From contig DAOVER010000007.1 of NCBI GenBank assembly GCA_030668875.1, positions 30,001 to 62,000 on the forward strand: DNA of 32,000 nucleotides. The letters are read 5' to 3'. The notes under the pieces are model-generated. The model ran no database searches and had not been told where the DNA came from. It worked only from the letters and a program-made list of their open reading frames with translations. The DNA is from Candidatus Heimdallarchaeota archaeon (GTDB lineage Archaea > Asgardarchaeota > Heimdallarchaeia > Heimdallarchaeales > Heimdallarchaeaceae). A program made the position numbers and the translations under genes. Below are positions 4,197-24,706 of the stretch, piece after piece (position 1 is the first letter of the stretch; each line of letters opens with the position of its first letter).

Positions 4197-4339
4197 ATAA
4201 GTCCACCTAGACGATTATTGTTCAGCCCTTAACCTTAAGTTAGTATTATATATTTGAAATTTGTTATACGTAAATGAATCTTGTTATCAAAAGAGCTAAA
4301 GTTAGTAAGACTTTTCAAGTTGCTATTATCTGTCTTCTC

Positions 4340-6114: not shown

Positions 6115-6117
6115 CCA

Positions 6118-7344: not shown

Positions 7345-7402
7345 AATAGTACTTCTAGAGTTCAAAAACAATAATTAAAAATGGTTGATTATTTCTATAC
7401 TT

Positions 7403-8188
7403 ATGAGTGTTAGAGCGCCTGTTTTTGTTAAAAAGTATGAGGAAGTAGCTAAGAAGAAGAATAGTATTCTTAGTGTTGGTTTGGATCCAGCAATACCTCG
7501 TCAAAGAGATAAGAATGTGATACCTACAGAGGAAAGAGTAAGCTTTATGGAGAATATTATCGATCTGGTTTCTCCATATACAAGTGTAATCAAGATAAAT
7601 CGTCAATATACCTTAGGATTAACCATTGATGATATTCGTACAATTAACAGGCAAATACATTCAAAGAAAATGCTCTCCATGTCTGACCACAAACTAGGCG
7701 ACATAGGTTCTTCTAACGAATCAGCTATATTCTGGTTTAAAGAGGAAGAATTTGATGCCTTTACATTTAATCCCTATAGTGGTAATGTGCTTGAAACAAC
7801 AGAAATGGCTCATAAACTTGACTTAGGTATCATAGTGCTTACTTTGATGTCAAACCCACAAGCGATCCTACAAAAACACGCAAACGTGCAAGGAAAACCC
7901 CTGTTTCAGCATATCGCCAGTTTATGTAAAGAAGCTAATTCAGATGGATGCGTTATAGGTGCAACAGCTCATGTTGAACCATCTGATATATTAGAAATTA
8001 AGCGAATTGTTGGTGATAATACTATAGCACTAGCACCTGGTGTGGGTGCTCAAGGTGGGAGTGCTGATACGCTTCTTAAGAGCTTTAAGACAAAAACTAT
8101 GGTTAATGTAAGTAGAGGAGTAATCTATTCTCAGTCTCCAGGAGAAAAAGCGAAAGAAATACAAGAAAAGCTTAATGGGCTTTTGTGA
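7403..8188 (+). CDS. pyrF: Orotidine-5'-phosphate decarboxylase, canonical copy
   Basis: VGLDP, VIK, DHKLGDIG, GAT, PGVGAQGG and NVSR all intact. ATG at 7403 preferred over TTG at 7385. Confidence 0.93.
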   Translation: MSVRAPVFVKKYEEVAKKKNSILSVGLDPAIPRQRDKNVIPTEERVSFMENIIDLVSPYTSVIKINRQYTLGLTIDDIRTINRQIHSKKMLSMSDHKLGDIGSSNESAIFWFKEEEFDAFTFNPYSGNVLETTEMAHKLDLGIIVLTLMSNPQAILQKHANVQGKPLFQHIASLCKEANSDGCVIGATAHVEPSDILEIKRIVGDNTIALAPGVGAQGGSADTLLKSFKTKTMVNVSRGVIYSQSPGEKAKEIQEKLNGLL

Positions 8189-8210
8189 GCTTGAAAATTT
8201 CCTTTTCCCT

Positions 8211-8810
8211 TTACAAATTATTTTCTATTAATTTCTTGTCTTGTTCCGAAATATATTCTTCATCTATTTCCAAGCATAATTTGAATATTTCATTTATCGT
8301 AATAAAAGAATGAAGTTTTATATTTAGATTTTCTAATTCTTCCAATTTACTTTGACTTCGATCGATAAGTACGATCATATTATCGACTACAAAACCATTA
8401 TCTCTTAATGCTAATATTCCAGGTATTTTACTACTACCTGTAGTAATTAGATCATCTATGAGTACAACTCTTGATGCAGATGGAATACTTCCTTCAATTA
8501 TTTTTTTCAATCCGTGTTCTTTCATTTGAGGTCTAACAATAATTGAGGGGATACCTAACTTGTATCCAGCAACTGCAGAAAAAGGAATACCAGCTACTGC
8601 AACTCCAGCTAATGCATCAACCCCATGAATCTTCTTGATCATATCTATATAACAGTCAATGACGAATTCGAAAGTTTCTGGGTAGGAAGAAATCAATCTT
8701 AAATCAACATAAAACCAAGACTTCTTTCCAGATTTAAGTGTGAAATCTCCATATTTCAAAATCTTATTTTTCAAGAGATGTTCAGTTAGCTCTCTTTTCT
8801 TTACGTCCAT
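8211..8810 (-). CDS. pyrE: Orotate phosphoribosyltransferase
   Basis: FTLKSG..S.FYVDLR, AVAGIP, KEHG, VVLIDDLITTG PRPP loop. Confidence 0.95.
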   Translation of the reverse strand: MDVKKRELTEHLLKNKILKYGDFTLKSGKKSWFYVDLRLISSYPETFEFVIDCYIDMIKKIHGVDALAGVAVAGIPFSAVAGYKLGIPSIIVRPQMKEHGLKKIIEGSIPSASRVVLIDDLITTGSSKIPGILALRDNGFVVDNMIVLIDRSQSKLEELENLNIKLHSFITINEIFKLCLEIDEEYISEQDKKLIENNL

Positions 8811-8822
8811 TATTTACGCCCT

Positions 8823-10340: not shown

Positions 10341-10352
10341 GTCCTAAATCAT

Positions 10353-11357
10353 TTAAGTTAAGAGTTCCTTTAATCTTCTTTGGCCCATTGCTTGCTTTAT
10401 CTCTCTACATATTCTTCGAGCCATACTCATGTCCTCATCAAATAGAAAACGTGAATAAGGTGAACCGTTAACATAGAGAGTTGTGCCAGCTACTATCCTA
10501 CTTGTAAATTCAAAAGCCACAATTTCCTCTGAAGTAATTGCCAATTCTATGCAGAAAGGACCTAATAAGCCAGGAGGGAACAATTTTGCAGCTGCTTCCA
10601 TTAATCTATCTCCACAATCAAGTAGTTCTGGGACTAATGATTCTCTTGCAATAAGAGGTTGGTTGCCAACTACTTTATAGCTGGGTTTTATTTTGAAATT
10701 ATTTTGAGATAATCTACCTAAAGCATCCGCATTTGTTTCGTATCTCCTATCGATTCCAAGCATTTCTACTCTATTATGAATGACAGAATGGAAATAATGA
10801 GGATACATTGTAACACCTGTGATATATTCTTGAATTTGTGCTGATTTGGCAGCATCTTCAGAGATTGAATCTGTTGAAAGTAGTTCAGCTATTTGTTGTT
10901 CATATTCAGAGTGAGAGGAACATAGGAAATAGCCTAGTCCTCCTTTTGCACCAGGAAACTTAACAATTGATAACCTATCAATTTTATCTGAACTATATGT
11001 CTTTGGAGTTCTGATATTGGCTTCTTTTAACAACTGATGATTTTTGTCTCTTACCATCTCCCAGTGCATTCCTTCTTTATTGCCAAAGACAGGAATCTGA
11101 ATATCAAGAGCTCTTTTTCCAAGAGTTGCAATGAGAGTTCCATGAGGCACAAAAATTTCATTCAAATCAGGTTCTTGAGTTAGTAAATCATCATAAGAAC
11201 CAAGCGTTACAATTTCTTGTGCTACAGGATATCTTTTGTACAGATCTTCTTTCCCTTTAATACAATAGACCTTTGTATTGAACCCTTCTTGTTTAGCTCC
11301 ATACAGAATTTGAAGGGCAGAATGACTGCCAATTGTTGAGATTATCAATATACTCAA
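10353..11357 (-). CDS. purP: PurP (formate-dependent FAICAR synthetase, ATP-grasp), short Pyrococcus PF1517-like form
   Basis: GSHSALQIL.GAK.EGF, GAKGG.GYF, IQEY..G...YPHYF, IDRRYE, GNQP...RESL, GPFC, RIVAGT, NGSPY. Confidence 0.9.
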   Translation of the reverse strand: MSILIISTIGSHSALQILYGAKQEGFNTKVYCIKGKEDLYKRYPVAQEIVTLGSYDDLLTQEPDLNEIFVPHGTLIATLGKRALDIQIPVFGNKEGMHWEMVRDKNHQLLKEANIRTPKTYSSDKIDRLSIVKFPGAKGGLGYFLCSSHSEYEQQIAELLSTDSISEDAAKSAQIQEYITGVTMYPHYFHSVIHNRVEMLGIDRRYETNADALGRLSQNNFKIKPSYKVVGNQPLIARESLVPELLDCGDRLMEAAAKLFPPGLLGPFCIELAITSEEIVAFEFTSRIVAGTTLYVNGSPYSRFLFDEDMSMARRICREIKQAMGQRRLKELLT

Positions 11358-11532
11358 GGAAACGCGAAAGAAATTGCTTTTTAATTTTTTAGTTTAGTGT
11401 ATATTTTAAGTTGCTTCGATTTGGCGTGAAATTGAGTTGGAATGAAGTTTAACGTGAGAATAACTATTTAGTTCATGCAACTGATGTTTGCAAAACTATG
11501 TAAAACATGCTTATTCTTGCTTAACTTCAGAT

Positions 11533-11570
11533 AAAGTCAACATAGATTTTATTTAAGTCATGTTGATTTT
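11533..11570. repeat. Inverted repeat (10/11 bp arms, 16-nt spacer) just after the purP-like stop codon
   Basis: AAAGTCAACAT (11533-11543) and ATGTTGATTTT (11560-11570). Confidence 0.55.
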
Positions 11571-11571
11571 T

Positions 11572-12654
11572 CTATGTTAGGATGTATTCTAATCTACTAT
11601 ATTCTATTGCCTCTTTTATCTCCATGCTCACTCTTTTACCTGCAGAAGTTGGTTGTCCCCAATATACTGCAGAATATTGACTACCAATTCCCATAAAGCT
11701 ATTTGTTCCTCCACCCATTCTTGTGGATACATCAAAGACGATAAATTCATAATCTTTAGTAATCATCGTTTGCAAGGCAAAAGGTCCTATCATCCCTGGA
11801 GGATAAAGATGTTTTGTAGCATCAACAAAATAGTCACCCATGGGATAAACTTTTCTTAACATTGATTCTCTTAAGGTAACTGCATAGTTTCCAATCTCTT
11901 TCATTTCTTCATCAAAACCCATCTTGATTTGTTGATTAGCAGGTAATCTGACAATTCCATCTAGGTCAGTAACAAATCTTCTATCTATACCTAATAATTC
12001 TGTTCTTTTGAATAATGGTGAATAGAAGAAGTTAAAGTTGAAAGTAACTCCAGAGATGAATTCTTCAATAGATGCCTTGTGCAAATCTTTCTCAAGAATT
12101 GATCCATTTTCTATTCGCTTTTCTAGTTCTTCCTCAAAATCCTCACGATTCTTAGCCACAAAGAACCCTCTCTCTACTCTCTGTTTTGCATGATGAATTT
12201 TACATATGACTGGTCCATCGATTTCTTTAGCATTCTTGTAAACTTTTGGGTATCGAATATTAGCTTCTTCAAGTATTCTATAGTAGTTGTGATATCCTGT
12301 TCTCTCTTCAGTCTTTAATAACTCCCGACTACCAAAAATAGGCACTCTGAATTCTCTTTCTATTCTATTAAACCCACAATAAACAACAAAAGATCTGTTA
12401 GGAATAAAAATGCAATTCTTCTCGATCAACTGCTCTTGAATGTCAAATATATCTGAAAAATTGTCTACTACGATCATGTCATCAATAATTCTATTATATC
12501 TTGTGTAGGGTTCTTCTCTCCCCTTTTCGACAATAACAACAGTTTTGAATCCAACTCGTTTTGCTCCATCTAGAACATCTAAAGCTGAATGCGAACCTAT
12601 AACTCCAATAGTTATATCTTCTTGATTGTAACTCTCTAATACCTCTGTAATCAT
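11572..12654 (-). CDS. PurP-like ATP-grasp paralog (second PurP subfamily)
   Basis: GSHSALD..DGAK..GF, PNRSF, ERGFF, IEEF..G..FNFNFFYSP, IDRR, GPFALQ, RMGGGTN; GGTGA RBS. Confidence 0.88.
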   Translation of the reverse strand: MITEVLESYNQEDITIGVIGSHSALDVLDGAKRVGFKTVVIVEKGREEPYTRYNRIIDDMIVVDNFSDIFDIQEQLIEKNCIFIPNRSFVVYCGFNRIEREFRVPIFGSRELLKTEERTGYHNYYRILEEANIRYPKVYKNAKEIDGPVICKIHHAKQRVERGFFVAKNREDFEEELEKRIENGSILEKDLHKASIEEFISGVTFNFNFFYSPLFKRTELLGIDRRFVTDLDGIVRLPANQQIKMGFDEEMKEIGNYAVTLRESMLRKVYPMGDYFVDATKHLYPPGMIGPFALQTMITKDYEFIVFDVSTRMGGGTNSFMGIGSQYSAVYWGQPTSAGKRVSMEIKEAIEYSRLEYILT

Positions 12655-12671
12655 TTTATCACCTAATTTAG

Positions 12672-13451
12672 TTAAGTGTCCTCTGGATAAGATTTTAGTA
12701 CCTTGAATGGAATTCTATTGAGTTCTGTTATCTTTCCCCAGTGCTTGCCAACGCCAGCAAGGATTATTACTTTGATTGGAACGCCACTTGAACGACGAAC
12801 AAGTTCAACTAATGCTTTTTGAGTTGATCCTGATCTAATTACATCATCAACAATCAATACTCGTTCATCATGTTTAATGAATTTTTCAGGAAGATAAATT
12901 GTTTCAACTCTTCCAGAAGTCATAGATTGAATGTCCTCAGCAATACATTCAGTTGTTCCCAAAGGTTTTTTCCTACGAGCATATACACAATCTATGTTGA
13001 GTAAATGTGCTAACGTCAGTGCAACAGGTATTCCATCCACTTCAGCTGTTATTATCTTATCCACATCTCTTGGGATAATGCCTTGTTGAATGGCTAAAAA
13101 TAGAATAGCTTTCAGTGTTTTTGAATCATTCAGCAAGTATGTATTATTTACAGCTGTATTGCCAAAACTATCTGTCCATTCATGAATATGACTGCCAATT
13201 AGACTTTTAATTGTTAAACCTAGATCTTTATTTCCTATCAAAACCTTGAGAATTTCACTTTTCAATTTTGATTTAGGCAAAGCTTTCCCATTAATATATC
13301 GTGATAGATTAGCAATAGAAACTTCAACATCTGATTTTGCTAAATAATCTTTCATAGATTCCAATGTTTCAAACCCTTTGAAAGCCATTTTTAGAAGGTT
13401 AAGAGTCATCAACTTTTCTTGAGCATCAATATAACTTTCTGCTGAACTCAT
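12672..13451 (-). CDS. HTH + phosphoribosyltransferase-domain transcriptional regulator (PurR-like PRPP sensor)
   Basis: N-terminal HTH-like LSRYINGKALP; C-terminal TAEVDGIP and VLIVDDVIRSGST PRPP loop; divergent from the pur operon. Confidence 0.8.
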   Translation of the reverse strand: MSSAESYIDAQEKLMTLNLLKMAFKGFETLESMKDYLAKSDVEVSIANLSRYINGKALPKSKLKSEILKVLIGNKDLGLTIKSLIGSHIHEWTDSFGNTAVNNTYLLNDSKTLKAILFLAIQQGIIPRDVDKIITAEVDGIPVALTLAHLLNIDCVYARRKKPLGTTECIAEDIQSMTSGRVETIYLPEKFIKHDERVLIVDDVIRSGSTQKALVELVRRSSGVPIKVIILAGVGKHWGKITELNRIPFKVLKSYPEDT

Positions 13452-13545
13452 TGATACAACGAATTTCTTTTCAAGTAATATATTTTTGGTTGAGCACTAG
13501 AATTATGTTAAAACTACAGTAAAACCTCCATGTATTTTTAAGTAG

Positions 13546-13578
13546 TTTATAAAGACTAATTTGCATTACATTGCAATG
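13546..13578 (+). promoter_or_regulatory. TATA-like TTTATAAA followed by perfect palindrome CATTGCAATG (candidate promoter/operator)
   Basis: TTTATAAA at 13546-13553; palindrome at 13569-13578, at about the expected transcription-start distance. Confidence 0.5.
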
Positions 13579-13601
13579 CGGTCTATTACACAGTCTGCTT
13601 A

Positions 13602-13633
13602 CCTCCCACCAGATATTTCTACCACCATATATT
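13602..13633. repeat. Tandem imperfect 16-bp direct repeat
   Basis: CCTCCCACCAGATATT / TCTACCACCATATATT, 13/16 identical. Confidence 0.6.
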
Positions 13634-13747
13634 CTTCATTTGTTCTAACACCGTTTAGTAGTAAAATTTATTAATGATGTCCGATTTTGGTTGCAGATAC
13701 AGACAGCTAACTGTTTGCATTATGGTGTAAAAACGGGGATATTTGCA

Positions 13748-14749
13748 TTGGTAACTTATTCTGGGAAAGCAAAAGATGTTGTAGTATTGAATGATAAAGA
13801 AGTTCAGATTATTTTTCGAGATTCTATATCTGCTTTTGATGGTGTTAAAAAGGAAGAGTTAGCTGAAAAAGGAATAATTAACTGCCTTACATCTGTAAAA
13901 CTGTTTGAAATTCTGGATGAGTATGGATTCAACACACATTTCATATCAAAAATAAGTGATTCGAAATTGCTTTGCAAAAAAGTAACAATATTGCCTGTTG
14001 AAGTTGTATGCAGAAATATTAGTGCTGGTAGTTTTTGTAGAAGATATGGTTTTGAAGAAGGCATTAAATTTAAGCAACCATTAATTGAGTTTTTCGTGAA
14101 GGATGATGAACACCATGATCCACTAATAACAGAGTCAGTTGCTGTTCAAATGAAACTCATTACAGATAATGAAGCTATTTTAATGGAAGCTATTACAAGG
14201 GCAGTGAATGAGGTTCTACTAAAGATATTTGATTTAATCTCCCTACAACTTGTAGATTTCAAACTTGAATTTGGAAGAACTACTGAAGGTCAATTATTAC
14301 TTGCCGATGAGATTTCAGCAGATACTATGAGATTATGGGAGAAAAAAACAGGGGAGAAAAAAGATAAGGATAGGTATAGACAAGAACTTGGAGATGTTAT
14401 AGTTCATTATAAGGATATTCTGGATCGACTAAATTCAATTCAAAAGCTTCCGAATTATAAGCCTTTGAGTACAGCTCGAGTGATTATAAAACTAAGAAAG
14501 TCTGTTCTTGATCCTGCAGGTGAAGTGACATTTCGTTCTCTTTCCAGAAAAGGTTTCAAAAGAATTGAGTCAGTGAGGTTGGGTAAAAGTGCAGAGATTG
14601 CGTTCAATGCGGTCCCTTCATCTGAATTGCAAACAGAGATAGAAGAGATTTCAGCAAAGATTCTATCCAATCCTCTTATAGAGGATTTTGATTTAACAAT
14701 ACGACATCATTTAGAAAAAAGTGAAAAAGAACACGTTAAAGAAGAATAG
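13748..14749 (+). CDS. purC: SAICAR synthetase fused in frame to PurS (FGAM synthetase subunit)
   Basis: PurC: YSGKAK, SAFDG, PVEVVCRN, EFFVKDD, DFKLEFG, ADEIS.DT.RLW, DKD.YR. PurS from about 14468: VIIKL...VLDPAG...L...GF..I..VRLGK...ILSNPLIEDF. Probable TTG start at 13748 after GGGGAT (ORF track starts at 13691). Confidence 0.92.
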   Translation: MVTYSGKAKDVVVLNDKEVQIIFRDSISAFDGVKKEELAEKGIINCLTSVKLFEILDEYGFNTHFISKISDSKLLCKKVTILPVEVVCRNISAGSFCRRYGFEEGIKFKQPLIEFFVKDDEHHDPLITESVAVQMKLITDNEAILMEAITRAVNEVLLKIFDLISLQLVDFKLEFGRTTEGQLLLADEISADTMRLWEKKTGEKKDKDRYRQELGDVIVHYKDILDRLNSIQKLPNYKPLSTARVIIKLRKSVLDPAGEVTFRSLSRKGFKRIESVRLGKSAEIAFNAVPSSELQTEIEEISAKILSNPLIEDFDLTIRHHLEKSEKEHVKEE

Positions 14750-14757
14750 GTGACTAT

Positions 14758-15444
14758 ATGCGAATTGGAATCACCAAATTTCCGGGAACTAATAATGAAC
14801 AAGATGTTCTCAGAGCATTGAGTATTTTAGATGTTAAGGGTGAACTAATTTATCCTTGGGATGATAAGAAACTGGAAAATTTGGATGCTTTAGTTATAGC
14901 AGGTGGTTTTTCTTATGGAGACTACCTAAGACCTGGTGGCATAGCTGCTCAATCTCCAGTAGCGGAAAAACTAATCGATTTTGAAAAAAATGGTAAGTTT
15001 ATCATAGGTATATGTAACGGTTTCCAAATTTTATGTGAAACAAAAATTCTTCCGGGCGTGCTGACAACTAATCTATCAACTAAGTTTATCTGTAAGTGGA
15101 TAAATATCAAAACTGAGAATTCCCAAAGTCCCCTTTTACAAAATTTAGAATCAATAATTAAGATTCCAATTGCTCATTATGAAGGTAGATATTATCATGA
15201 TTCAAATGGAATCAAGAAAATAAATGACGATGATTCTGTAGCTTTTCGTTATTGTAATGAACATGGTGAGATTACTCAAAAAAGTAATCCTAATGGATCA
15301 TTGGAAAATATTGCTGGTATCACAAATACCAAAGGTAACGTTTTGGGTATGATGCCACATCCTGAACGAGCTAGTTTTGATTATTTAGGCTCGGATACTG
15401 GAAGACAAATCTTTGCAAATTTAATAGAGGAAATAAAATGCTAA
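14758..15444 (+). CDS. purQ: FGAM synthetase glutaminase subunit
   Basis: FPGTN, GGFSYGDYLR.G, GICNGFQ, PIAH.EG, NPNGS, GMMPHPER; GGTGA RBS. Confidence 0.96.
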   Translation: MRIGITKFPGTNNEQDVLRALSILDVKGELIYPWDDKKLENLDALVIAGGFSYGDYLRPGGIAAQSPVAEKLIDFEKNGKFIIGICNGFQILCETKILPGVLTTNLSTKFICKWINIKTENSQSPLLQNLESIIKIPIAHYEGRYYHDSNGIKKINDDDSVAFRYCNEHGEITQKSNPNGSLENIAGITNTKGNVLGMMPHPERASFDYLGSDTGRQIFANLIEEIKC

Positions 15445-17615
15445 CAACAGAAGAATATAGTAAAATTCTTGATGTATTAGAAAGAGAGCCCAATAAGGGA
15501 GAAGTAGCTGTTTTTGAAGCTATGTGGTCTGAACACTGCTCTTACAAATCTTCCAAGAGATGGTTTCACCTGTTCAACGAAAAAGCCCCATATATCGAGC
15601 TTGGGATTGGAGAAGGTGCGGGTTTAATAAATCTTGGAGATGATTTACTTGTTGGTTTAGGATTAGAAAGCCATAATCATCCATCTGCAATTTCACCCTA
15701 TGATGGTGCTGCAACAGGTGTTGGTGGTATTATTAGAGATATACTATCTCAGGGATGTAAACCAATCGCTGTTCTAGATGCTATTAGATTTGGCAATATA
15801 GAAAAATCTCAACACTCTCAGTATCTTTTGGAGAACGTTGTTAGAGGTATTTCGTTCTATGGTAATTGTTGTGGAATTCCTACAGTTGGAGGAGAAGTAG
15901 AGTTTGCACCACAATTTGAACATAATTGTTTGGTAAATGCAATGTGTGTTGGAGTGGTTCAGAAAAACAAGGTAGTGAGAAGTATGGCTACAAAGCTAGG
16001 ATCATTTCTTGTTCTCTATGGAGCAAGAACTGGAAGAGATGGGATACATGGTGTTTCTTTTGCTTCCAAAGATTTGAGCGATAAGAGTGATAGGGATCGA
16101 CCAGCCGTTCAAATTGGGGATCCTTTAATGGAGAAAATACTAATTGATGTTACTTTAGAGTTAGTAGAAAAAGAGCTTCTTGAAGGATTGCAAGATCTAG
16201 GAGGAGGGGGATTGAGCTGTGCTGTATCTGAAATGGCACACAAAGGAAATACTGGTGCAATAATCAGGTTGGAAGACGTTCATCTAAGAGAAGATGATAT
16301 GCTACCTTGGGAAATATTGGTTTCTGAATCTCAAGAAAGAATGTTAGCTGTAGTTGAACCTGATAAATTAGATGAAGTTGTAAGTATTCTAGACAAACAG
16401 GATTTAACCTATGGAGTAATTGGTGAAGTTACAGATAATAGCCATTGTATTGCATATTTTAGAGGAGAAAAAATTATTAATTTACCAGTTGAATTAATAG
16501 TTGATGGTTTTCCAGAACCTGAAAGGATTGCAGAAAAACCAAGCTACTTGGATGAAGAAGATTTTCTTATTCCTAAAATTGAAGATATAAAGCACGAAAT
16601 TCTCAAACTTCTATCCTCTCCAAATATTGGAAGCAAAGCTTGGGTGTATCAACAGTATGATCAGCATGTTCAAACGCAAACAGTTGTTCCCGCTGGATCT
16701 GATTCAGCTGTTTTGAGACTTGATAATGGGAAATACGTTGCTCTCTCGTTAGATTGTAATTCATTTATGGTTTATCTCGATCCATATAATGGAACCGCAA
16801 ATAGTGCAACTGAAGCAATGAGAAATTTAATTGCAACTGGAGCGAAACCATTAGCATTTGTGGATTGCTTGAATTTTGGTAATCCAGAACATCCTGATTC
16901 TTATTGGCAATTCGTTGAATCAATAAAGGGTTTAGGGCAATTCTCGCACGATTTTAATATTCCTGTTGTTGGAGGAAATGTTTCCTTGTATAATGAAAGT
17001 TTCATTGAAGATAAGAGAGAAAGAATAAACCCCACACCTACAATAGGAATGATTGGTATCATTGAAAATCCAGAAAAATTGATAAAAAACAACTTTCAAG
17101 AAAAAGGAACCTTTGTTGTGAGTATCGGAGAGTGCGACGGTAATCTTAATGGTTCCGAATTTTTAAGAAATAATTTTGGAATTCTTCAAGGAAAAATATC
17201 ACAATATGATAAAAAGAACGAAGAATCTTCTCGAAAAGCTATTGAAAATTTAAATCAAGCAGGATATATTAAGAGTTGTCACGACATCTCAAATGGAGGT
17301 CTAATTACAGCTTTAGCAGAAATGACTTTTAAAAATGAAATTGGTGTGAAATTAGATTTATTAGACAATGACTCCTTTAAAATACTCAAACCAGAAGAAT
17401 TTCTTTTTGCTGAAACACCTTCAAGATATATTATAGAAATATCATCAGAGTACATTGAAGGTGCATCCAAAATGATTGAAGGTAAGGTTTCTTTTAGCAT
17501 TCTAGGAAAAACTATTACTAAACAAAAAATAGAGATTGAGAATTTTCTTTCTATGGACATTAAACAGCTGAAAAATGCGTGGAAAAAAACTATTTCACAA
17601 TATATGGAGAACTAA
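15438..17615 (+). CDS. purL: FGAM synthetase, small PurL
   Basis: [62 protein letters not shown]. Confidence 0.97.
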
Positions 17616-17617
17616 AG

Positions 17618-18028
17618 ATGATTGATATTATAGCAGGAAGCAAAAGTGATGAAAAGATTGTACAGAAAGCAGTAACAATCTTAGAAAAGAATGGAACATC
17701 ATTCAATGTTTATTATATCTCAGCACACAGAGAGCATGATAAATTGGTAGAGACAATTAAAGCATCTTCATCAGATGTTTTTATTTGTATAGCTGGTTTA
17801 GCAGCAGCGTTACCAGGAGTAGTAGCATCTTTAACTGACAAACCTGTAATAGGTGTGCCTGTTTCTGCTACCTTAAACGGATTAGATGCGTTACTATCTA
17901 TGGTCCAAATGCCTAAGGGGGTACCAGTTGCAACCGTAGGAATTGATAATGGTCAAAATGCTGCTCATTTAGCTATTAGAATTTTACAATTAAAAAGAAA
18001 GGAAGGAATAAGTGAAAAGAATGACTGA
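17618..18028 (+). CDS. purE: PurE (N5-CAIR mutase / AIR carboxylase)
   Basis: [43 protein letters not shown] at 17618 follows the purL stop. Confidence 0.94.
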
Positions 18029-19058
18029 TAATAAAAAACCTCCTTCAACATATGCAGAAGCTGGAATCGATTTGTCAATAGAAGCTCAAATTCTAAAAAC
18101 AATTAATGATTATGTGAAAAAATCCTTTCAATTTGGTGATGTAGTTGCAAAGGAAGGTCATTACGCAAATATGATTAAATTAGGCGATATTGGTTTAGCA
18201 CTCACTTCAGACGGGGTTGGTACTAAATTACTTATTGCTCAAGATACTGGGAAACTTGACACAATAGGAATCGACTGTGTAGCAATGAATGTTAATGATT
18301 TGCTTTCAATGGGAATTCCTCCAAAAGCATTTGTAGATTATTTAGCAGTATCTGAATTGAACAAATCTCAAATCGAGCAAATAATTTCTGGAATTTATAA
18401 GGGATGTGAATTATCAGGAATTCCCTTGCTAGGTGGAGAGCTAGCAACAGTACCTGAGTTATTAGTTGATAAGAAAAATGCTTTTGATGTTGCCGGAACC
18501 GCTTTGGGAATAGTTTCTCTTGATAGTGTTATTGATGGGTCTAAAATCAAACTTGGTGACTCTGTTATTGGAATAACAAGCAGTGGATTACATTCAAATG
18601 GATATACTATTGTAAGAAAAATTCTTTCAATCAAGTATCTTCTAAGTGAGAGTTTTCCATGGGGAAGAGAAGTGTATGAAGAGCTCTTAGAACCAACGAG
18701 GATTTATGTTAAAGCAATACTAGATCTTATAGAAAGTTGTTCAGTATCAGGTTTAGCTCATATTACAGGTGGTGGTTTTAAGAAATTATTCAGACTAACC
18801 AATTATGGTTTTGAGTTGAATAATTTCCCCAAACTATCGAATATATTTGAGGAAATTCATATTTTGGGTAGAATTTCCTTCCAAGAGATGTTTTCAATTT
18901 TCAACATGGGAATTGGCTTTGTTGCTGTTGTTCCAAAAGAAGAGGAAGAGAAAGCGCTTAAGCTATTAAATAAGCATTTCAAAAGCATCACAATCGGAGA
19001 GGTTGTAGAAGATCCAATAGTATCTATTTCTAAGTATGATGTGTTATTTACAAGGTGA
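18021..19058 (+). CDS. purM: AIR synthetase
   Basis: [54 protein letters not shown]. Start is 18021 (ATG) or 18012 (GTG). Confidence 0.96.
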
Positions 19059-19062
19059 TATG

Positions 19063-19665
19063 ATGAAAATAGCTGTTCTAATATCTGGAAGAGGTTCTAA
19101 TCTTCAGGCCATACTTAAAGCTGAAAATGAAAAAAAGTTAGGTAATGCTGAAGTTTTCTTGATTATCAGCAGTAATCCTAATGCAGCAGGTTTAGAATTT
19201 GCAAAAAACTATAACAAATACGCCGTTGTACTTGATCCAAAGGATTATGCTAATAAAACTGAATATGATAAGAAATTGAAATCTATAATGCTTGAAAATG
19301 ATATTGAATTGATAGTTTTAGCTGGATTTATGAAAGTTTTATCACATTCATTTGTTGATTATTTTAAGAACAAAATTATCAATATTCATCCGTCCTTACT
19401 CCCAGCTTTTCCAGGTTTAAATATTCATGAAAGGGTATTAGAATATGGAGTGAAATATTCTGGATGCACAGTTCATTTTGTGAATGCAGATGTTGACGGA
19501 GGACCTATTATTGCTCAAAGAGTGGTTGAAGTGTTAGATGGGGATTCACCTGATTCATTAGCTGCCAGAATATTGATCAAAGAACATATTCTGCTACCAG
19601 AAGTGATAAAGAAAATTTCAGAAAATAAGATTATTGTAAATCAAAGAAGAGTGAAGGTAAATTAA
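19063..19665 (+). CDS. purN: GAR transformylase (10-formyl-THF dependent)
   Basis: ISGRGSNLQA, VLAGFMKVL, NIHPSLLPAFPG, GCTVHFV..DVDGGPII; GGTGA RBS before tandem ATGs at 19060/19063. Confidence 0.96.
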   Translation: MKIAVLISGRGSNLQAILKAENEKKLGNAEVFLIISSNPNAAGLEFAKNYNKYAVVLDPKDYANKTEYDKKLKSIMLENDIELIVLAGFMKVLSHSFVDYFKNKIINIHPSLLPAFPGLNIHERVLEYGVKYSGCTVHFVNADVDGGPIIAQRVVEVLDGDSPDSLAARILIKEHILLPEVIKKISENKIIVNQRRVKVN

Positions 19666-19666
19666 G

Positions 19667-21064
19667 ATGTGTGGTGTTTTAGGTATAATTGGACCAACAA
19701 CACTTGGTCAAGGTAAAGTTTTGCTTCAGATGCTAACACATAGAGGACAAGATGCAAGTGGGGTTGGGTGGATTGAAGAAAAAACAAGCAATATTAAGAT
19801 TATTAAGAAAGATAGCTATCCAGATTTACTAGATTTGGATGAAACTAAAGAAACTTCTCAATTAATTGGATCTACAAGATATCCCACATTTGGAACAAGA
19901 ACTGACAGTTCTAATATAGAAAAATATGCACAACCCTTTACCTTCAAAACCAAGTATGGTACATTAGCAATAGTACACAATGGTAATATCACCAATATTC
20001 ATAACATGATAACTAGAGACTATGAAAGTGATACCGAATTCATCGTTGAGTTCCTTGGAAGCTTACTAAATAAAACCCAAGGGAATCTGAATGAATCAGT
20101 CAAAATGTTTATGGAAAGAGTGGATGGAAGCTATTCAATTATAGGGACGCTGGATGAAACACTATTTTCTTTCAGGGATCCAAGGGGTATAAGACCTTTA
20201 GTGATGGGAAGTAATGAAAATATTACTGTTATTAGTTCAGAAAGCGTTGTACTTCAAAATATTGGTGTTGAAAATATAAGAGATATAAAACCTGGAGAAT
20301 TAATTATTTTCAAAAAACAAGATATCCAAAGTTTTCAGATTTTAGTGAAAGATCATGCACATTGTATGTTTGAGTATGTTTACTTTGCTAATCCATGTTC
20401 AATTATTGAAGAGCGACTAGTTTATGATGTGAGGTTGGATTTAGGCAAGGAACTAGGGTTAAGAATAAAGGAGAATAATCTGGATATTGATTATATTGTT
20501 CCTGTTCCTGATACTTCAAGACCCGCTTCCCAGGGGTTATCCGAAGTATTGAACCTTCCCATACGAGAAGCAATAATCAAGAATAGATATCTTCAACGTA
20601 CCTTTATTATGAAGAGCAAACAAGAACGAACAAAAATTGCAAAAAGCAAATATCTCTATACAGCCAAATATATCAAAAATAAAAACATCCTAGTTGTAGA
20701 TGATTCAATAGTTAGAGGGTTGACAAGTCAAAAAATAGTCAAAGATTTAAGAAAACTGGGAGCTAATAAGATATACTTTGCCGTAACTTGTCCTGCAATA
20801 AGATTTGCTTGTTATTATGGTATAGATTTTCCAACTGATGAAGAATTGATTGCTTCAGGTCACACAGTAGAAAAAATCAAAGAAGTTCTTGATGTAGACG
20901 GAGTATTTTATCAGAACATTGATTCATTAAAAACTGCAATCGGTTTCTCTGATTTATGTACCGCTTGTTTATCTGGAAGTTATCCAACACCTTATGCTCA
21001 AGAAATCAGGATTAAATATTTGAACGGGGAATTAAAAGGGAGAAGTCATTATGAAGAGGTCTAA
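19667..21064 (+). CDS. purF: Amidophosphoribosyltransferase (Fe-S type)
   Basis: N-terminal MCG, HRGQD, HNGN, RDPRGIRPL, CMFEYVYFA, VVDDSIVRG, CYYGID, CTAC. Confidence 0.96.
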   Translation: MCGVLGIIGPTTLGQGKVLLQMLTHRGQDASGVGWIEEKTSNIKIIKKDSYPDLLDLDETKETSQLIGSTRYPTFGTRTDSSNIEKYAQPFTFKTKYGTLAIVHNGNITNIHNMITRDYESDTEFIVEFLGSLLNKTQGNLNESVKMFMERVDGSYSIIGTLDETLFSFRDPRGIRPLVMGSNENITVISSESVVLQNIGVENIRDIKPGELIIFKKQDIQSFQILVKDHAHCMFEYVYFANPCSIIEERLVYDVRLDLGKELGLRIKENNLDIDYIVPVPDTSRPASQGLSEVLNLPIREAIIKNRYLQRTFIMKSKQERTKIAKSKYLYTAKYIKNKNILVVDDSIVRGLTSQKIVKDLRKLGANKIYFAVTCPAIRFACYYGIDFPTDEELIASGHTVEKIKEVLDVDGVFYQNIDSLKTAIGFSDLCTACLSGSYPTPYAQEIRIKYLNGELKGRSHYEEV

Positions 21065-21066
21065 AA

Positions 21067-22320
21067 ATGTCTGAAAAAATACTGTTAATAGGTAATGGTG
21101 CAAGAGAGCATGCTATTGCGAAAAAGATTGTAGAAAATGAGGGGATTTTATATTCCTATATGTCAAGAGAAAATCCTGGTATAGCAGATTTATCCAAGAA
21201 ATTTAGTGTTGGTAAACTTGAGGACTTCAATAAGCTAAAGAAATATAGAAATGTTGACTATGCAATTGTGGGACCTGAATCACCTCTCTCTGAAGGTATA
21301 ACTAATTACTTGGAAGATAAACTGAAAATTCCAACTTGTGGTCCAAGAAAAGAAGTTGCAAAAATAGAGTCAAGTAAGATTTTTGCCAGATATTTACTTG
21401 ATGCATATGATATACCAGGAAATATACCATATACAATCTGTAGAACAATTGATGATTTAGAAGACGCAATTCAAGAATTTGGCTTGGAAATCGTTATTAA
21501 ACCAGATGGCTTAACTGGGGGAAAAGGTGTAAAGGTCTATGGTGATCATTTCAATTGTTTTAAAGAAGCAAGAAATTATGCAAAACAATTACTAGCTCAA
21601 GATGCAGAATTTCTCGTTGAAGAGAAAATCAAAGGAAAAGAGTTTTCATTACAAGTTTTTACAGATGGGAAAACAATAACTCCTATGCCATTGGTTCGAG
21701 ATTACAAAAGAGCCTATGATGAAGAGAAAGGCCCAAATACTGGAGGCATGGGATCATATAGTTTACCTTCTCATGATTTACCATTTTTGTCAGAGAAAGA
21801 TATCAAATCCGCGAATGAAATTCTAGGGAAAACAGTTACTGCAATGAAAAAGGAAACCGGTATTGACTATAAAGGAATATTATATGGTCAATTTATGAAA
21901 ACAAATGGGAAAATTCATGTGATTGAATTTAATGTGAGATTTGGCGATCCTGAAGCTATAAATGTTCTGAAGCTTCTCAAAACAGATTTCAATTTAATCG
22001 CAAACCAAATAATTGATGGAAATCTAGGAAAAACTGAGTTTTCTAATCAGGCAACGGTCTGTACATACCTTGTTCCAGATGGCTATCCAACAAATCCAAA
22101 AGAGAATAGACCTATTGAAGTTGATTCTACCATGAATGCTGATTTATACTATGCTTCAGTATACAGAGAAAGGAAAGAAATCAAAACAACAAAGAGCAGA
22201 GCTATAGCAATAATTGAAACTGGTTCAAATCTAGAAGTAGCAAAACAAAAAATTAATGATAATATAACAAAAATAAAGGGAGATCTCTTCTATAGGAACG
22301 ATATAGGCGTTCTCTTATAG
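21067..22320 (+). CDS. purD: GAR synthetase
   Basis: GNGAREHA, NPG, VGPE, E.SK.FA, KPDGLTGGKGV, DYKR...GPNTGGMG, EFNVRFGDPE. Confidence 0.96.
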   Translation: MSEKILLIGNGAREHAIAKKIVENEGILYSYMSRENPGIADLSKKFSVGKLEDFNKLKKYRNVDYAIVGPESPLSEGITNYLEDKLKIPTCGPRKEVAKIESSKIFARYLLDAYDIPGNIPYTICRTIDDLEDAIQEFGLEIVIKPDGLTGGKGVKVYGDHFNCFKEARNYAKQLLAQDAEFLVEEKIKGKEFSLQVFTDGKTITPMPLVRDYKRAYDEEKGPNTGGMGSYSLPSHDLPFLSEKDIKSANEILGKTVTAMKKETGIDYKGILYGQFMKTNGKIHVIEFNVRFGDPEAINVLKLLKTDFNLIANQIIDGNLGKTEFSNQATVCTYLVPDGYPTNPKENRPIEVDSTMNADLYYASVYRERKEIKTTKSRAIAIIETGSNLEVAKQKINDNITKIKGDLFYRNDIGVLL

Positions 22321-22341
22321 GTAGCTTTAATGAGTTCTAAA

Positions 22342-22812
22342 TCACAGTTTACGATTTAGATATTTCTTATCCAGTAATCGATCACAATATACACATCTTA
22401 AAATAAGTGGATCCTTCGAAACAACATCAAACGAAGATACAATCGGTTCATGAGCATTAGAAACACAGTTTGGATTAACACAGTCAACAAAATCTTCAAC
22501 ATGTTCAGGAATTTTCAGGTATTGTTTCTCTTGAACTTTGTAATCTACAATAATGTTTACAGTTGCAGTTGGGGCAATGAAAGAAAGTTTCTGCGTATCT
22601 TGAGAAGTAAGAGCTTTTCCTCTTATTTTTACAACATCTTTAAGTTTCATCTTTCTAGAAGGAACTCTTATAGCTAAAGCTACAGTATAGGGATAGTTGG
22701 AATCAATACCGAGAATTTCAAGAATCTTCAAAGCTTTACCTGGGGGGATTCTATCAATTACTGTACCATCTTTGATTTTTGTAACAATCAACTTATCATT
22801 ACTTTCACTCAT
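22342..22812 (-). CDS. pyrI: Aspartate carbamoyltransferase regulatory chain
   Basis: I.DGTVID.I, KDVVK, AP.ATVNII, Zn ligands CVNPNC and CVYC. ATG at 22812 follows the pyrB stop. Confidence 0.94.
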   Translation of the reverse strand: MSESNDKLIVTKIKDGTVIDRIPPGKALKILEILGIDSNYPYTVALAIRVPSRKMKLKDVVKIRGKALTSQDTQKLSFIAPTATVNIIVDYKVQEKQYLKIPEHVEDFVDCVNPNCVSNAHEPIVSSFDVVSKDPLILRCVYCDRLLDKKYLNRKL

Positions 22813-22813
22813 T

Positions 22814-23731
22814 TTAATCAAGTCCCAAATATTTTAAAATTAAGGCCATTCTTATCCAAACACCATTATGTGCTTGTTCAAAGTATCTAGAATGCTTGGT
22901 TTTGTCAATTGCATAATCAATCTCATCCACACGAGGAAGAGGATGTAATATGATAAATCGATCCTTAACGTTCTTGATGTCTTCCGTAGATATTTGATAA
23001 ACCCCTTTGAGCCTTTCATAATCCACAGGATCTGGAAATCGCTCTTTTTGAATTCTAGTCATATAAAGAACATCAAGATCAGGGATGATATCTTTTAGAT
23101 TCTCTTCAGTATTAAATTTGAATCCATTTTCCTTTAATCTCAATGCTACATTTTTTCTTAATTTAAGAGCTGGAGGAGCTATCAGATGAAGATCTATATT
23201 ATCATATTTTGCCAAAGCGAATAGAAGTGAAGGAATAGTTCTTCCATAGAGTAAGTCACCCATTACACCAATACTTAGATTGTCGATTCCTTTAAACTCC
23301 TTCTTAATGGAATAAAGGTCAAGTAAAGCCTGAGTTGGGTGTTCTTGCGAACCTGTTCCTCCAGATATCACTGGAATTGAAGCAAATTTTTTGGCTATCT
23401 CTCCTACCCCTTCAATATAGTGTCTAATGACCGCAATATCAGAATAATGATTAATCATTCTTAAAGTATCAGCAATACTTTCACCCTTAACAGTGCTACT
23501 TACTTTAGCATCGGTAAAACCTAAAATTTGTCCACCTAGTCTTAGCATGGCACTCTCAAAAGAAAGCCTAGTTCTAGTGCTTGGTTCAAAGAATAATGAT
23601 GCTAAGATTTTTCCTTTACATTTATCTGCAAATTGGTCAGGGTTTGCTTCTATTTTGGAAGCAAGAGAAAAAATCTGTTCAACAAAATCTTTGGAAATGG
23701 TCCTTGTTGAGAATAAATGTTTTGGTATCAT
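22814..23731 (-). CDS. pyrB: Aspartate carbamoyltransferase catalytic chain
   Basis: FFEPSTRTRLSF, KGES..DT, EHPTQALLD, GDL.YGRT, Y.TRIQKERF, HPLPRVDEI. Confidence 0.97.
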   Translation of the reverse strand: MIPKHLFSTRTISKDFVEQIFSLASKIEANPDQFADKCKGKILASLFFEPSTRTRLSFESAMLRLGGQILGFTDAKVSSTVKGESIADTLRMINHYSDIAVIRHYIEGVGEIAKKFASIPVISGGTGSQEHPTQALLDLYSIKKEFKGIDNLSIGVMGDLLYGRTIPSLLFALAKYDNIDLHLIAPPALKLRKNVALRLKENGFKFNTEENLKDIIPDLDVLYMTRIQKERFPDPVDYERLKGVYQISTEDIKNVKDRFIILHPLPRVDEIDYAIDKTKHSRYFEQAHNGVWIRMALILKYLGLD

Positions 23732-23771: not shown

Positions 23772-23810
23772 TTATAAAAGATGTGGTGAGCAAGAGAAAT
23801 TTTGCAAAAT
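23772..23810 (+). promoter_or_regulatory. TATA-like TTATAAAA plus perfect 12-bp palindrome ATTTTGCAAAAT in the pyrB / pyrF2 divergent region
   Basis: TATA-like at 23772-23779; palindrome at 23799-23810. Confidence 0.5.
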
Positions 23811-23890
23811 AGTGTAAAATAAATCCAACAAGCTGATTTTTCATGAAAGCTAAAACAAGGATTAAATATGGAAAGGTGAATCTTTTCTAC

Positions 23891-24706
23891 ATGAGTTCAA
23901 TTCTTCCCAGTTTCTTAGACAAATATGCGGAAGTTGTTAAGAAAAAGAATAGTATACTATGCGTTGGTCTAGATCCTGCATTACCAATTCAAAGAATGAG
24001 ACAAGTAATTCCAAATGATGATAGACTCGAATTTATGAAAAGAATAATAGCTGATGTAGCACCTTATGCAAGCGTAATAAAAATGAATAGACAGTACTTA
24101 ATAGGTCTTACAGCTGCTGAGATACGACAATTAAATGTCCTGATACATCAACAGGGAATGCTTTCAATAGTTGATCACAAACTTGCAGATATCAGTTCTT
24201 CAAACTCTTCTGCTATTTTCTGGATAAGAGAGGAAGGTTTTGATGCCTTTACTTTTAATCCTTATGGTGGGAATATCGAGGAAGCTACGAGAATGGCCCA
24301 TGAGAAGAAGCTAGGAATAATTGTAGTAACCTTGATGTCTAATCCCCAAGCAATAATTCAAAAACTGCTTAATATCTACGAAAGTCCCTTCTTTTTACAT
24401 GTTGCAGAAATATGTAAAGTTGCTAAATCAGATGGTTGTATGATTGGAGCTGGAAGTCATATTAAACTAACAGATATTGCCAAAATTAAACAGTTGATTG
24501 GAAATAATGCAATTGCTCTGGTTCCAATAATGGGACAATATAAAGAAAATGCAAAACATACAATATTGCATTTTGGAGATAAAACAATGATTAGTGTTGG
24601 TGGAGCAATTTTATACTCGGATAATCCACCAGAAAAAGCAAGACAATACCAAGAACAGTTTAACGCTTATAGAGATAAATTGAGTCAGAAGAGTTTAGAT
24701 ATTTAG
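23891..24706 (+). CDS. Divergent PyrF (OMP decarboxylase) paralog lacking phosphate-binding residues
   Basis: Aligns gap-free with the 7403-8188 protein (about 56% identity by hand count). Keeps VGLDP, VIK and DHKLADI, but PGVGAQGG is PIMGQYKE and NVSR is SVGG. ATG at 23891 follows a GGTGA RBS. Confidence 0.85.
   Translation: MSSILPSFLDKYAEVVKKKNSILCVGLDPALPIQRMRQVIPNDDRLEFMKRIIADVAPYASVIKMNRQYLIGLTAAEIRQLNVLIHQQGMLSIVDHKLADISSSNSSAIFWIREEGFDAFTFNPYGGNIEEATRMAHEKKLGIIVVTLMSNPQAIIQKLLNIYESPFFLHVAEICKVAKSDGCMIGAGSHIKLTDIAKIKQLIGNNAIALVPIMGQYKENAKHTILHFGDKTMISVGGAILYSDNPPEKARQYQEQFNAYRDKLSQKSLDI

Follow-up and report, generated by a model that had tools for sequence, protein, structure and literature searches.

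The stretch analysed here is a window of 32,000 nucleotides from the assembly GCA_030668875.1 of a Candidatus Heimdallarchaeota archaeon (contig DAOVER010000007.1, positions 30,001 to 62,000). It carries two genes for proteins of the orotidine 5'-monophosphate (OMP) decarboxylase (OMPDC) family. One gene, CAN, encodes a canonical type-2 OMPDC, or PyrF. The other gene, PAR, encodes a 271-amino acid paralogue that retains the catalytic residues and lacks the phosphodianion gripper, which comprises a Gly-rich loop with a conserved Gln and an Arg and an Asn located after strand 8. PAR is a member of a clade of 23 gripper-less proteins, one branch of which is called the PAR subclade below. The coordinates of PAR, its motifs and the other features discussed are listed in Table 1.

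PAR matches the Pfam family PF00215 (OMPdecase / HUMPS superfamily) over profile positions 3-221 of 221, with a score of 61.5 bits against a gathering cut-off of 27. However, its score with the NCBIfam equivalog for subfamily-2 PyrF (TIGR02127, pyrF_sub2) is 61.4 bits, which is well below the cut-off of 110.6. CAN scores 60.7 bits with PF00215 and a borderline 109.3 bits with TIGR02127, and it matches solved OMPDC structures in the Protein Data Bank (PDB). The two proteins align by BLASTP without a single gap, wherein 144 of 259 positions are identical (56%, E = 2e-108). Identity is 98/153 (64%) over the first 153 residues, 42/100 over the last 100 residues, and 27% over residues 211-240. A preliminary description of this DNA, made by a model from the letters alone, had proposed a gap-free alignment with about 65% and 42% identity over the first 153 and last 100 positions, and these hand counts proved to be exact. 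The open reading frame (ORF) of PAR is intact, as had also been claimed. A longer ORF that begins at an ATG at position 23843 was rejected on two grounds. Alignments with orthologues begin at 23891, and the additional codons overlap a conserved TATA-like box, where stop codons are present in the main clade.

PAR carries the Asp/Lys/D-x-K-x-x-D' array (the prime marks the Asp that acts in trans) and the pyrimidine-binding Ser that are expected of a functional PyrF, and it lacks the phosphodianion gripper that is equally expected. A pseudoenzyme should have lost an essential catalytic residue or should evolve neutrally, and neither is the case for PAR. The retained catalytic Lys and DHKLADI motif had been recognized in the preliminary description, and Asp28 and Ser150 can be added to them. 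The same description had reported that PGVGAQGG is changed to PIMGQYKE, NVSR to SVGG, and GAT to GAG. All three replacements are present at the positions it gave.

A structure of PAR predicted confidently with AlphaFold2 from an alignment of its clade is a (beta/alpha)8 TIM barrel (pLDDT 81.1, pTM 0.84). The top 50 matches of this model in a Foldseek comparison with the PDB are all OMPDCs (TMq 0.64-0.80). The best of these are the enzymes of Plasmodium, Leishmania and Toxoplasma (0.75-0.80), while archaeal type-1 enzymes score approximately 0.65-0.68. The sequencing runs that carry PAR sequence are all DNA, derived from marine-sediment or cold-seep metagenomes, and no RNA run is found among them. 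Four of these runs possibly come from the source sample itself.

Table 1. Window coordinates of PAR, its motifs, its upstream elements and other genes discussed in the text
Feature	Coordinates	Strand	Remarks
PAR, 271-amino acid OMPDC-family paralogue without phosphodianion gripper	23891..24706	+	intact ORF of 271 codons; coordinates include the stop codon
Asp28 codon (LDP motif; counterpart of ribose-binding Asp)	23972..23974	+	invariant in 23/23 gripper-less proteins and in canonical PyrF
Lys64 codon (IKMN motif; first catalytic Lys)	24080..24082	+	at least 90% in the gripper-less clade, Arg in outlier P0048; conserved in canonical PyrF
D95-H-K97-L-A-D100-I (D-x-K-x-x-D catalytic motif)	24173..24193	+	D95, K97 and D100 invariant across the clade
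Ser150 codon (LMSNP; counterpart of pyrimidine-binding Ser)	24338..24340	+	invariant in the clade
G-A-G in place of canonical G-A-T after strand 6	24446..24454	+	G or A in the clade; nearly always T in canonical proteins
PIMGQYKE (P212-E219), degenerate former gripper loop	24524..24547	+	canonical PGVGAQGG, by alignment to CAN
SVGG (S235-G238)	24593..24604	+	canonical NVSR/NVGR, by alignment to CAN; phosphate-binding Asn and Arg gone
TTAAATAT, TATA-like box	23862..23869	+	22-29 nucleotides before the ATG; conserved in PAR-subclade loci; putative promoter
GGTGA	23875-23879		between the TATA-like box and the PAR ATG
ATTTTGCAAAAT, palindrome in the pyrB/PAR intergenic region	23799..23810		probably a pyrB-side operator
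pyrB, divergent neighbour of PAR	22814..23731	-	orthologues in relatives 62-95% identical
pyrI	22342-22821		next to pyrB
CAN, canonical type-2 PyrF	7403..8188	+	listed ORF begins at TTG 7385; PGVGAQGG and NVSR intact
HTH-PRTase gene (helix-turn-helix, phosphoribosyltransferase)	12672-13451	-	259 amino acids
pyrD/pyrK	4274-6114		window counterpart of the retained pyrD/pyrK pair

The gripper-less clade and the selection acting on it

Four orthologues of PAR (82-89% identity) and about 20 further Heimdallarchaeal proteins (48-58% identity) were found among 5.8 billion proteins searched. These more distant relatives have lost the loop Gln and the glycines, and all but one have also lost the Arg. 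They are characterized by the motifs G-N-A-x-H, P-[LI]-Y-G-x-x-x and V-G-G. The former gripper loop differs between subclades of the clade (PIMGQYKE, PLYGKQHL, PIYGNEHL and PLYGTNYT). All 23 proteins form one group nested within Heimdallarchaeal type-2 PyrF, with an SH-aLRT value of 96 when all columns are used and 86 when the trait columns are removed. The subclades are only about 50-55% identical to each other. The conservation of the substitutions in relatives was one of the checks suggested in the preliminary description, and the loss of the loop and the Arg indeed extends across the clade, spanning 23 proteins and 17 species genomes. One clade member, P0006 (locus L009 in genome G018), still carries the Arg (VDVGR) beside the degenerate loop PLYGTNYT. 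Its ancestors either lost the loop first and kept the Arg, or reacquired the Arg later.

The gripper-less gene is limited to one genus of the order, where it is present with an intact frame in 17 of 24 species genomes, including that of the window. Only canonical PyrF is found in the four other genera of the family, which include two closed genomes. The assemblies of G020, G022, G027 and G028 do not cover the PAR region. In three genomes of the same genus that lack the gene (G010, G011 and G012), a gene for a RING protein abuts pyrB across a gap of 85-94 base pairs with no remnant. Thus, the gene was inserted after those lineages split or was cleanly removed from them.

When 1.84 billion cluster representatives were searched with a profile, the clade collapsed to one representative at 50% identity. 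No other lineage among these representatives has jointly lost the Gln loop, the Asn and the Arg, with the exception of a few degenerate singletons. The gripper-less proteins are annotated in databases as orotidine 5'-phosphate decarboxylase, which is probably a misannotation. Some OMPDC homologues unrelated to the clade (P0086, P0091, P0135, P0155, P0157, P0162, P0177, P0215 and P0225) keep the G-x-Q-G-G loop and have Ser, Thr or Glu in place of the gripper Arg, and they may be further natural variants of phosphate binding. Three others (P0130, P0139 and P0196) look degenerate throughout.

Pairwise ratios of nonsynonymous to synonymous substitution rates (dN/dS; Nei-Gojobori method) are 0.10-0.13 for the PAR subclade and 0.03-0.15 for the main gripper-less clade, wherein one very close pair gives 0.23. 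The CAN orthologues from the same genomes give 0.05-0.11. Mean pairwise identity within the genus is 0.68 for the gripper-less proteins versus 0.63 for canonical PyrF. The core (residues 1-185) has a dN/dS of 0.047 in the PAR subclade, 0.065 in the largest gripper-less subgroup (KQH) and 0.10 in the CAN orthologues. The corresponding values for the gripper segments (the loop plus the Arg segment) are 0.53, 0.25 and 0.055, and these are descriptive figures based on small counts and overlapping pairs.

The same picture emerges from individual positions. G213, Q217, G218, G219, A221 and N235, and also G127 and E131, are invariant or nearly so in canonical PyrF of the same genus but variable in the clade. 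Of these, G213, Q217, G218, G219 and N235 are phosphate binders. The sole clean fixed switch between the two groups within the genus is the change of R238 to Gly, with G in 15/16 clade sequences and R in 12/12 canonical ones. By contrast with these variable sites, D28, D95, K97, D100, S104 and S150 are invariant across the clade, and K64 is nearly so. The phosphate-binding side has therefore been released from constraint rather than rebuilt as a new precise site, while the catalytic core is strongly selected.

These values bear on the possibility that PAR is a decaying duplicate of pyrF, or an incipient pseudogene. The greater divergence of its C-terminal third from CAN (42% versus 64% identity) and the relaxed former gripper are compatible with such a fate. 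However, none of the 17 species genomes has a disrupted frame, and dN/dS is approximately 0.1 for the whole gene and 0.05 for its core. In addition, the TATA-like promoter box is conserved, and the gene has outlasted at least three independent deletions of the neighbours on its upstream side (see below). We consider decay to be extremely improbable, and the dN/dS comparison that the preliminary description had called for leads to the rejection of neutral decay.

Retention of the gene where de novo synthesis has been lost

PAR stands alone, with a divergent gene upstream and a convergent gene downstream. Its divergent neighbour, pyrB, forms the end of a nucleotide-biosynthesis supercluster (window positions 4274-23731) that contains pyrD, pyrK, pyrC, pyrF, pyrE, guaA, two purP genes, the HTH-PRTase gene, purC/S to purF, purD, pyrI and pyrB. 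CAN is the pyrF member of the pyrD-pyrK-pyrC-pyrF operon, and pyrE is convergent with this operon. The window's own genome contains pyrE and the rest of de novo uridine 5'-monophosphate (UMP) synthesis. The divergent pyrB/PAR layout is also found in G009 and G016. Two other PF00215 genes are present in the window's genome (L001 and L004, at G000:C27:9261-9866 and G000:C56:15835-16389), and both resemble 3-hexulose-6-phosphate synthase (HPS) rather than PyrF. The gene on C56 is a weaker and shorter match (48 bits).

Ten species (G008, G013, G015, G017, G018, G019, G023, G024, G025 and G029) have no PyrF homologue other than the gripper-less gene, and their remaining PF00215 matches are HPS-like. 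No pyrE, which encodes orotate phosphoribosyltransferase (OPRT), was found in these ten genomes, where the best match to TIGR00336 is 29 bits against a cut-off of 107 and nothing matches the PyrE of the window. Likewise, no pyrB orthologue was found in them. The ten genomes are 72-90% complete, and that of G023 is in 20 contigs. Thus, the co-occurrence with OPRT and de novo UMP synthesis that is expected of a functional PyrF is not observed, given that 10 of 17 species lack pyrE, pyrB and canonical pyrF.

The ancestral gene order begins with ETF/Fix genes, a radical SAM gene, a gene of unknown function and the RING gene, which are followed by PAR. Beyond it lie pyrB, pyrI, purD, purF and further genes to purC/S, then the HTH-PRTase gene, then purP, purP, guaA, pyrE and pyrF, and finally pyrC, pyrK and pyrD. 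In seven of the ten species that lack the pathway, contiguous sequence reveals that the pyrB-to-purC and purP-to-pyrF blocks have been cleanly excised, with the gripper-less gene intact between its old neighbours. The loss of the pathway is therefore not a binning artefact. After the deletions, the gene is divergent to the HTH-PRTase gene, which is followed by pyrK and pyrD, and pyrC is left only in G023 and G029. The loci compared for these deletions are L035-L043.

On the gene tree, the absence of the pathway requires four changes of state, and well-supported branches make at least three of them unavoidable. G009 and G016/G030, which keep the pathway, branch from within groups of species that have lost it. 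The upstream neighbours of the gene were therefore deleted at least three times independently, and the gene survived each time. Because it was kept intact under purifying selection throughout, neutral decay is ruled out. Its function depends neither on de novo UMP synthesis nor on canonical PyrF. The lack of OPRT in the ten species also makes OMP an unlikely substrate. The deletions further imply that purine and pyrimidine auxotrophy has evolved repeatedly within one Heimdallarchaeal genus.

One of the two functions envisaged in the preliminary description was that of a pseudoenzyme that tunes PyrF by forming heterodimers with it. Since OMPDC works only as a dimer whose subunits share the active site (PMC12874384), a regulatory subunit of this kind is conceivable. 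PAR and CAN are 56% identical and are both present in the window's genome, and the other three PAR-subclade genomes have pyrE. Two of these also have CAN, and in G026 the contig ends beside pyrE. For the clade as a whole, however, an obligate partnership is ruled out by the ten species that retain an intact gene under purifying selection without canonical PyrF. In addition, the invariant catalytic residues would not be needed by a mere modulator, and the core of PAR is more constrained than that of CAN. The proposal can be entertained only for the four genomes of the PAR subclade, and even there we regard it as quite improbable.

Species that lack pyrB, pyrE, pyrF and mostly also pyrC still have the pyrD and pyrK genes for a class 1B dihydroorotate dehydrogenase, with 76-77% identity (L035:12386-14154 and equivalents in L036-L039, L042 and L043). 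Their presence without the surrounding pathway suggests another role, such as that of an orotate or dihydropyrimidine reductase. The HTH-PRTase gene is kept in all species, and every deletion of the pyr/pur blocks has placed it next to the gripper-less gene in divergent orientation. The C-terminal part of its product is a phosphoribosyltransferase (PRTase) domain. The protein is most similar to PRK08558 'adenine phosphoribosyltransferase', with a sub-threshold score of 141 bits. It also resembles PurR, and its OPRT match is 24 bits.

The TATA-like box upstream of PAR has the counterpart GTTAAATAT in the KQH subgroup. In the PAR subclade, the box with its A-rich 5' flank has the sequence AAACAAGGATTAAATAT, and the corresponding sequence of the largest subgroup is AAACAAATTGTTAAATAT. 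The loci of the PIYG subgroup carry another TATA-like box about equally far from the ATG. This short distance suggests that the PAR transcript is probably leaderless or nearly so, and GGTGA therefore may not act as a ribosome-binding site. The preliminary description had named GGTGA as such a site. The motif is present, but the function assigned to it is doubtful given a conserved box so close to the start codon.

PAR had also been credited with a promoter/operator candidate of its own. The conservation of the TATA-like box is compatible with a promoter, but the case for an operator is weak. TTGCAA, at about position -89, is present in G009 and in three of four PAR-subclade loci. The five KQH-subgroup loci from which pyrB has been deleted lack it, and the palindrome thus finds no support as an operator of PAR itself. 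Being lost together with pyrB, it probably belongs to that gene.

Proposed function of PAR

We favour the reading that PAR is an enzyme of the OMPDC type that has been neofunctionalised and whose substrate is an orotidine-like riboside with no 5'-phosphodianion or with another 5' group, and we hold it with confidence and doubt in equal measure. PAR would be derived from a duplicated type-2 OMP decarboxylase that took on a new role while keeping a complete catalytic and nucleoside-binding core (Asp28, Lys64, Asp95-x-Lys97-x-x-Asp100', Ser104' and Ser150). Its ligand is most likely still an orotate-type ribofuranoside, which it would decarboxylate at C6 through the vinyl-carbanion chemistry of OMPDC. 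The device that grips the 5'-phosphodianion and closes the active site, made up of the Gln-bearing glycine loop, Asn and Arg following strand 8 and Thr following strand 6, is gone, and the segments concerned are drifting. The substrate is therefore probably not OMP, but more likely an orotidine-like riboside that carries no 5'-phosphate or a different 5' group. PAR is probably a homodimer, since Asp100 has to be supplied by a partner subunit and the ten species have no CAN that could provide it.

This proposal draws on experiments with the yeast enzyme. Gln215, Tyr217 and Arg235 of yeast OMPDC contact only the phosphodianion and contribute approximately 12 kcal/mol by holding the enzyme closed (PMC12874384). 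In the variant Q215A/Y217F/R235A, kcat/Km for OMP falls from 1.1e7 to 0.037 per M per s, whereas that for the phosphate-truncated substrate EO is only 9-fold down (PMC12874384). The core and the gripper of OMPDC are thus separable modules, and an enzyme of the PAR type should be almost inactive on OMP by the canonical mechanism, with a core that is still competent.

The other function envisaged in the preliminary description, a new enzyme for a non-phosphorylated substrate, is compatible with all findings and has become the leading reading, since the clade is conserved, the core is constrained, the gripper is relaxed and the gene persists without OPRT. More specifically and more tentatively, PAR might be a natural phosphate-independent decarboxylase of the OMPDC type. 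It might convert a nucleoside-level or 5'-modified substrate (e.g. orotidine or another 6-carboxy-pyrimidine riboside) to a uridine-type product, and reach its closed active form without the phosphodianion 'switch' by which textbooks account for the proficiency of OMPDC. Perhaps such an enzyme serves nucleoside scavenging or conversion in Heimdallarchaeia that lack de novo purine and pyrimidine synthesis. According to the preliminary description, neither of its two proposed functions is known to have been described. The literature searched likewise contains no described PyrF paralogue, pseudo-OMPDC or nucleoside-level OMPDC, with most papers in subscription journals outside its coverage.

Several points weigh against the favoured reading. 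The substrate assignment is a guess, and there is no evident natural source of orotidine. Substrates without a phosphate are turned over very slowly by wild-type OMPDC, and the absolute catalytic power of the core by itself is low. To be efficient, an enzyme working at the nucleoside level would therefore need another way to close its active site. None of the 30 family genomes, those of the species without the pathway included, has a uridine kinase (TIGR00235) that scores above the cut-off, and a simple route from orotidine through uridine to UMP thus has no obvious last step. The gene is monocistronic, with no operon partner that points to a pathway. Basic residues are present in or near the old loop of PAR (K218, K222, H223 and H227), with K222 and H227 each found in 16/17 clade loci, and these residues could still hold an anionic group. 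In addition, all comparison genomes are metagenome-assembled and 63-95% complete, and related species are not independent samples.

If the basic residues do hold an anion, PAR could be a second OMP decarboxylase isozyme in which Lys218, Lys222 and His227 bind the 5'-phosphate in place of the Gln/Arg clamp. All catalytic and ribose- and pyrimidine-binding residues are retained, the gene adjoins pyrB inside the supercluster, and K222 and H227 are nearly fixed in the clade at one to two helical turns past the old loop. Moreover, the species without pyrE retain pyrD/pyrK and the divergent HTH-PRTase gene, which leaves room for an unconventional route to OMP. However, the ten species lack OPRT and pyrB, and most lack pyrC at the locus, so that they have no known source of OMP. 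The HTH-PRTase is closest to purine PRTases rather than to OPRT, as its scores given above indicate. Furthermore, the old loop evolves with a dN/dS of 0.25-0.53 and differs between subclades, unlike a precise anion site that has been re-tooled, and three glycines whose backbone would bind phosphate are replaced by bulky residues. The triple-mutant data predict a loss of activity on OMP of approximately 3e8-fold (PMC12874384). A second isozyme is therefore unlikely, though it deserves consideration.

Another candidate role is that of a non-catalytic protein that binds a pyrimidine nucleoside or base and acts as a sensor or as the partner of a regulator such as the HTH-PRTase. The loss of the clamp that closes the loop should cripple catalysis (PMC12874384). 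The gene is monocistronic and is divergently paired with the HTH-PRTase gene in species without the pathway, and the need to bind a ligand, rather than to turn it over, could explain why the core is so constrained. Unfortunately for this proposal, the Lys/Asp array is invariant, including the trans-acting Asp100 (Lys64 nearly so), despite identities of only about 50-55% between subclades. Pseudoenzymes usually lose at least one residue of the catalytic array. We therefore see a purely ligand-binding role as rather unlikely.

A further idea, a PRPP-independent (phosphoribosyl pyrophosphate-independent) 'nucleoside-level' de novo route, was considered and dropped as a leading idea. It would have comprised carbamate kinase, a second aspartate carbamoyltransferase (ATCase), a hydantoinase-like amidohydrolase, PyrDK, a nucleoside phosphorylase, PAR and uridine kinase. 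The idea was prompted by a second ATCase cluster that is present in 8/10 pathway-less species. This cluster is 90-99% identical across species versus 55-77% for other proteins, which is not a sign of co-evolution, and it is absent from G014, G021, G017 and G018. The route would also require the uridine kinase that is missing from the 30 family genomes. The high identity of the ATCase-like protein between species suggests recent lateral spread within the genus. At L044 (G000:C61:8000-20000, ORFs 3649-9589) there are genes for carbamate kinase, an OTC-like (ornithine carbamoyltransferase-like) carbamoyltransferase, a second ATCase-like protein and a divergent dihydropyrimidinase/hydantoinase-like amidohydrolase. 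The ATCase-like gene product scores 259 bits with TIGR00670, above the cut-off, and is 38% identical to that of pyrB. The cluster looks like an ATP-yielding catabolic module for ureides or pyrimidines.

OMP decarboxylase is the standard case of an enzyme in which remote phosphodianion binding energy (approximately 12 kcal/mol) closes and activates the active site, and the gripper-less state has until now been studied only in laboratory mutants that are nearly dead on OMP. Here, a natural gripper-less variant is fixed across many species, with its catalytic core under stronger purifying selection than that of true PyrF. It is kept even in lineages that have discarded OPRT, PyrF, ATCase and purine synthesis. 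If PAR is indeed catalytic, then it would represent either a new class of substrate for the OMPDC scaffold or a new, dianion-free mode of activation. The repeated loss of nucleotide biosynthesis in one Asgard genus also bears on the metabolic dependence of these archaea on partners.

Comparison with known systems

The closest known relatives of PAR are the subfamily-2 OMPDCs (PyrF; PF00215, TIGR02127), which include CAN and the enzymes of Plasmodium, Leishmania and Toxoplasma. They share with the PAR model a TIM-barrel fold (Foldseek TM 0.75-0.80), and with PAR the Asp/Lys/D-x-K-x-x-D' array, the ribose-binding Asp and Ser' and the pyrimidine-binding Ser. PAR has the same length as CAN with no insertions or deletions, and it arose from this subfamily inside one Heimdallarchaeal genus. 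However, subfamily-2 enzymes bind the 5'-phosphodianion and close the loop by using the Gly-rich Gln loop, the Asn/Arg and the Thr, all of which are missing from PAR. PAR also reaches only about half of the equivalog cut-off (61 versus 111 bits) and is kept in genomes that lack OPRT or canonical PyrF.

More distant precedents for new chemistry in the OMPDC suprafamily are 3-hexulose-6-phosphate synthase and 3-keto-L-gulonate-6-phosphate decarboxylase, with which PAR shares its fold and Pfam family. These two enzymes keep the phosphate site, use Mg2+ and employ different catalytic residues. They are only distantly related to PAR, whereas PAR has the Lys/Asp array specific to OMPDC and 56% identity to a true PyrF.

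Engineered OMPDCs without a gripper (yeast Q215A/Y217F/R235A and the Methanothermobacter thermautotrophicus R203A, T159V and Y206F series) are altered at the same positions as PAR, and mutant OMPDC structures are found among the Foldseek matches of the PAR model. In these variants, the core is competent on a phosphate-truncated substrate and the activity on OMP is down approximately 3e8-fold (PMC12874384). Nevertheless, they are laboratory constructs with very low absolute activity, whereas PAR is natural and selected in many species, and its loop glycines are also replaced by bulky residues. The fold, ancestry and catalytic array of PAR are thus those of OMPDC, while its evolutionary behaviour is unusual.

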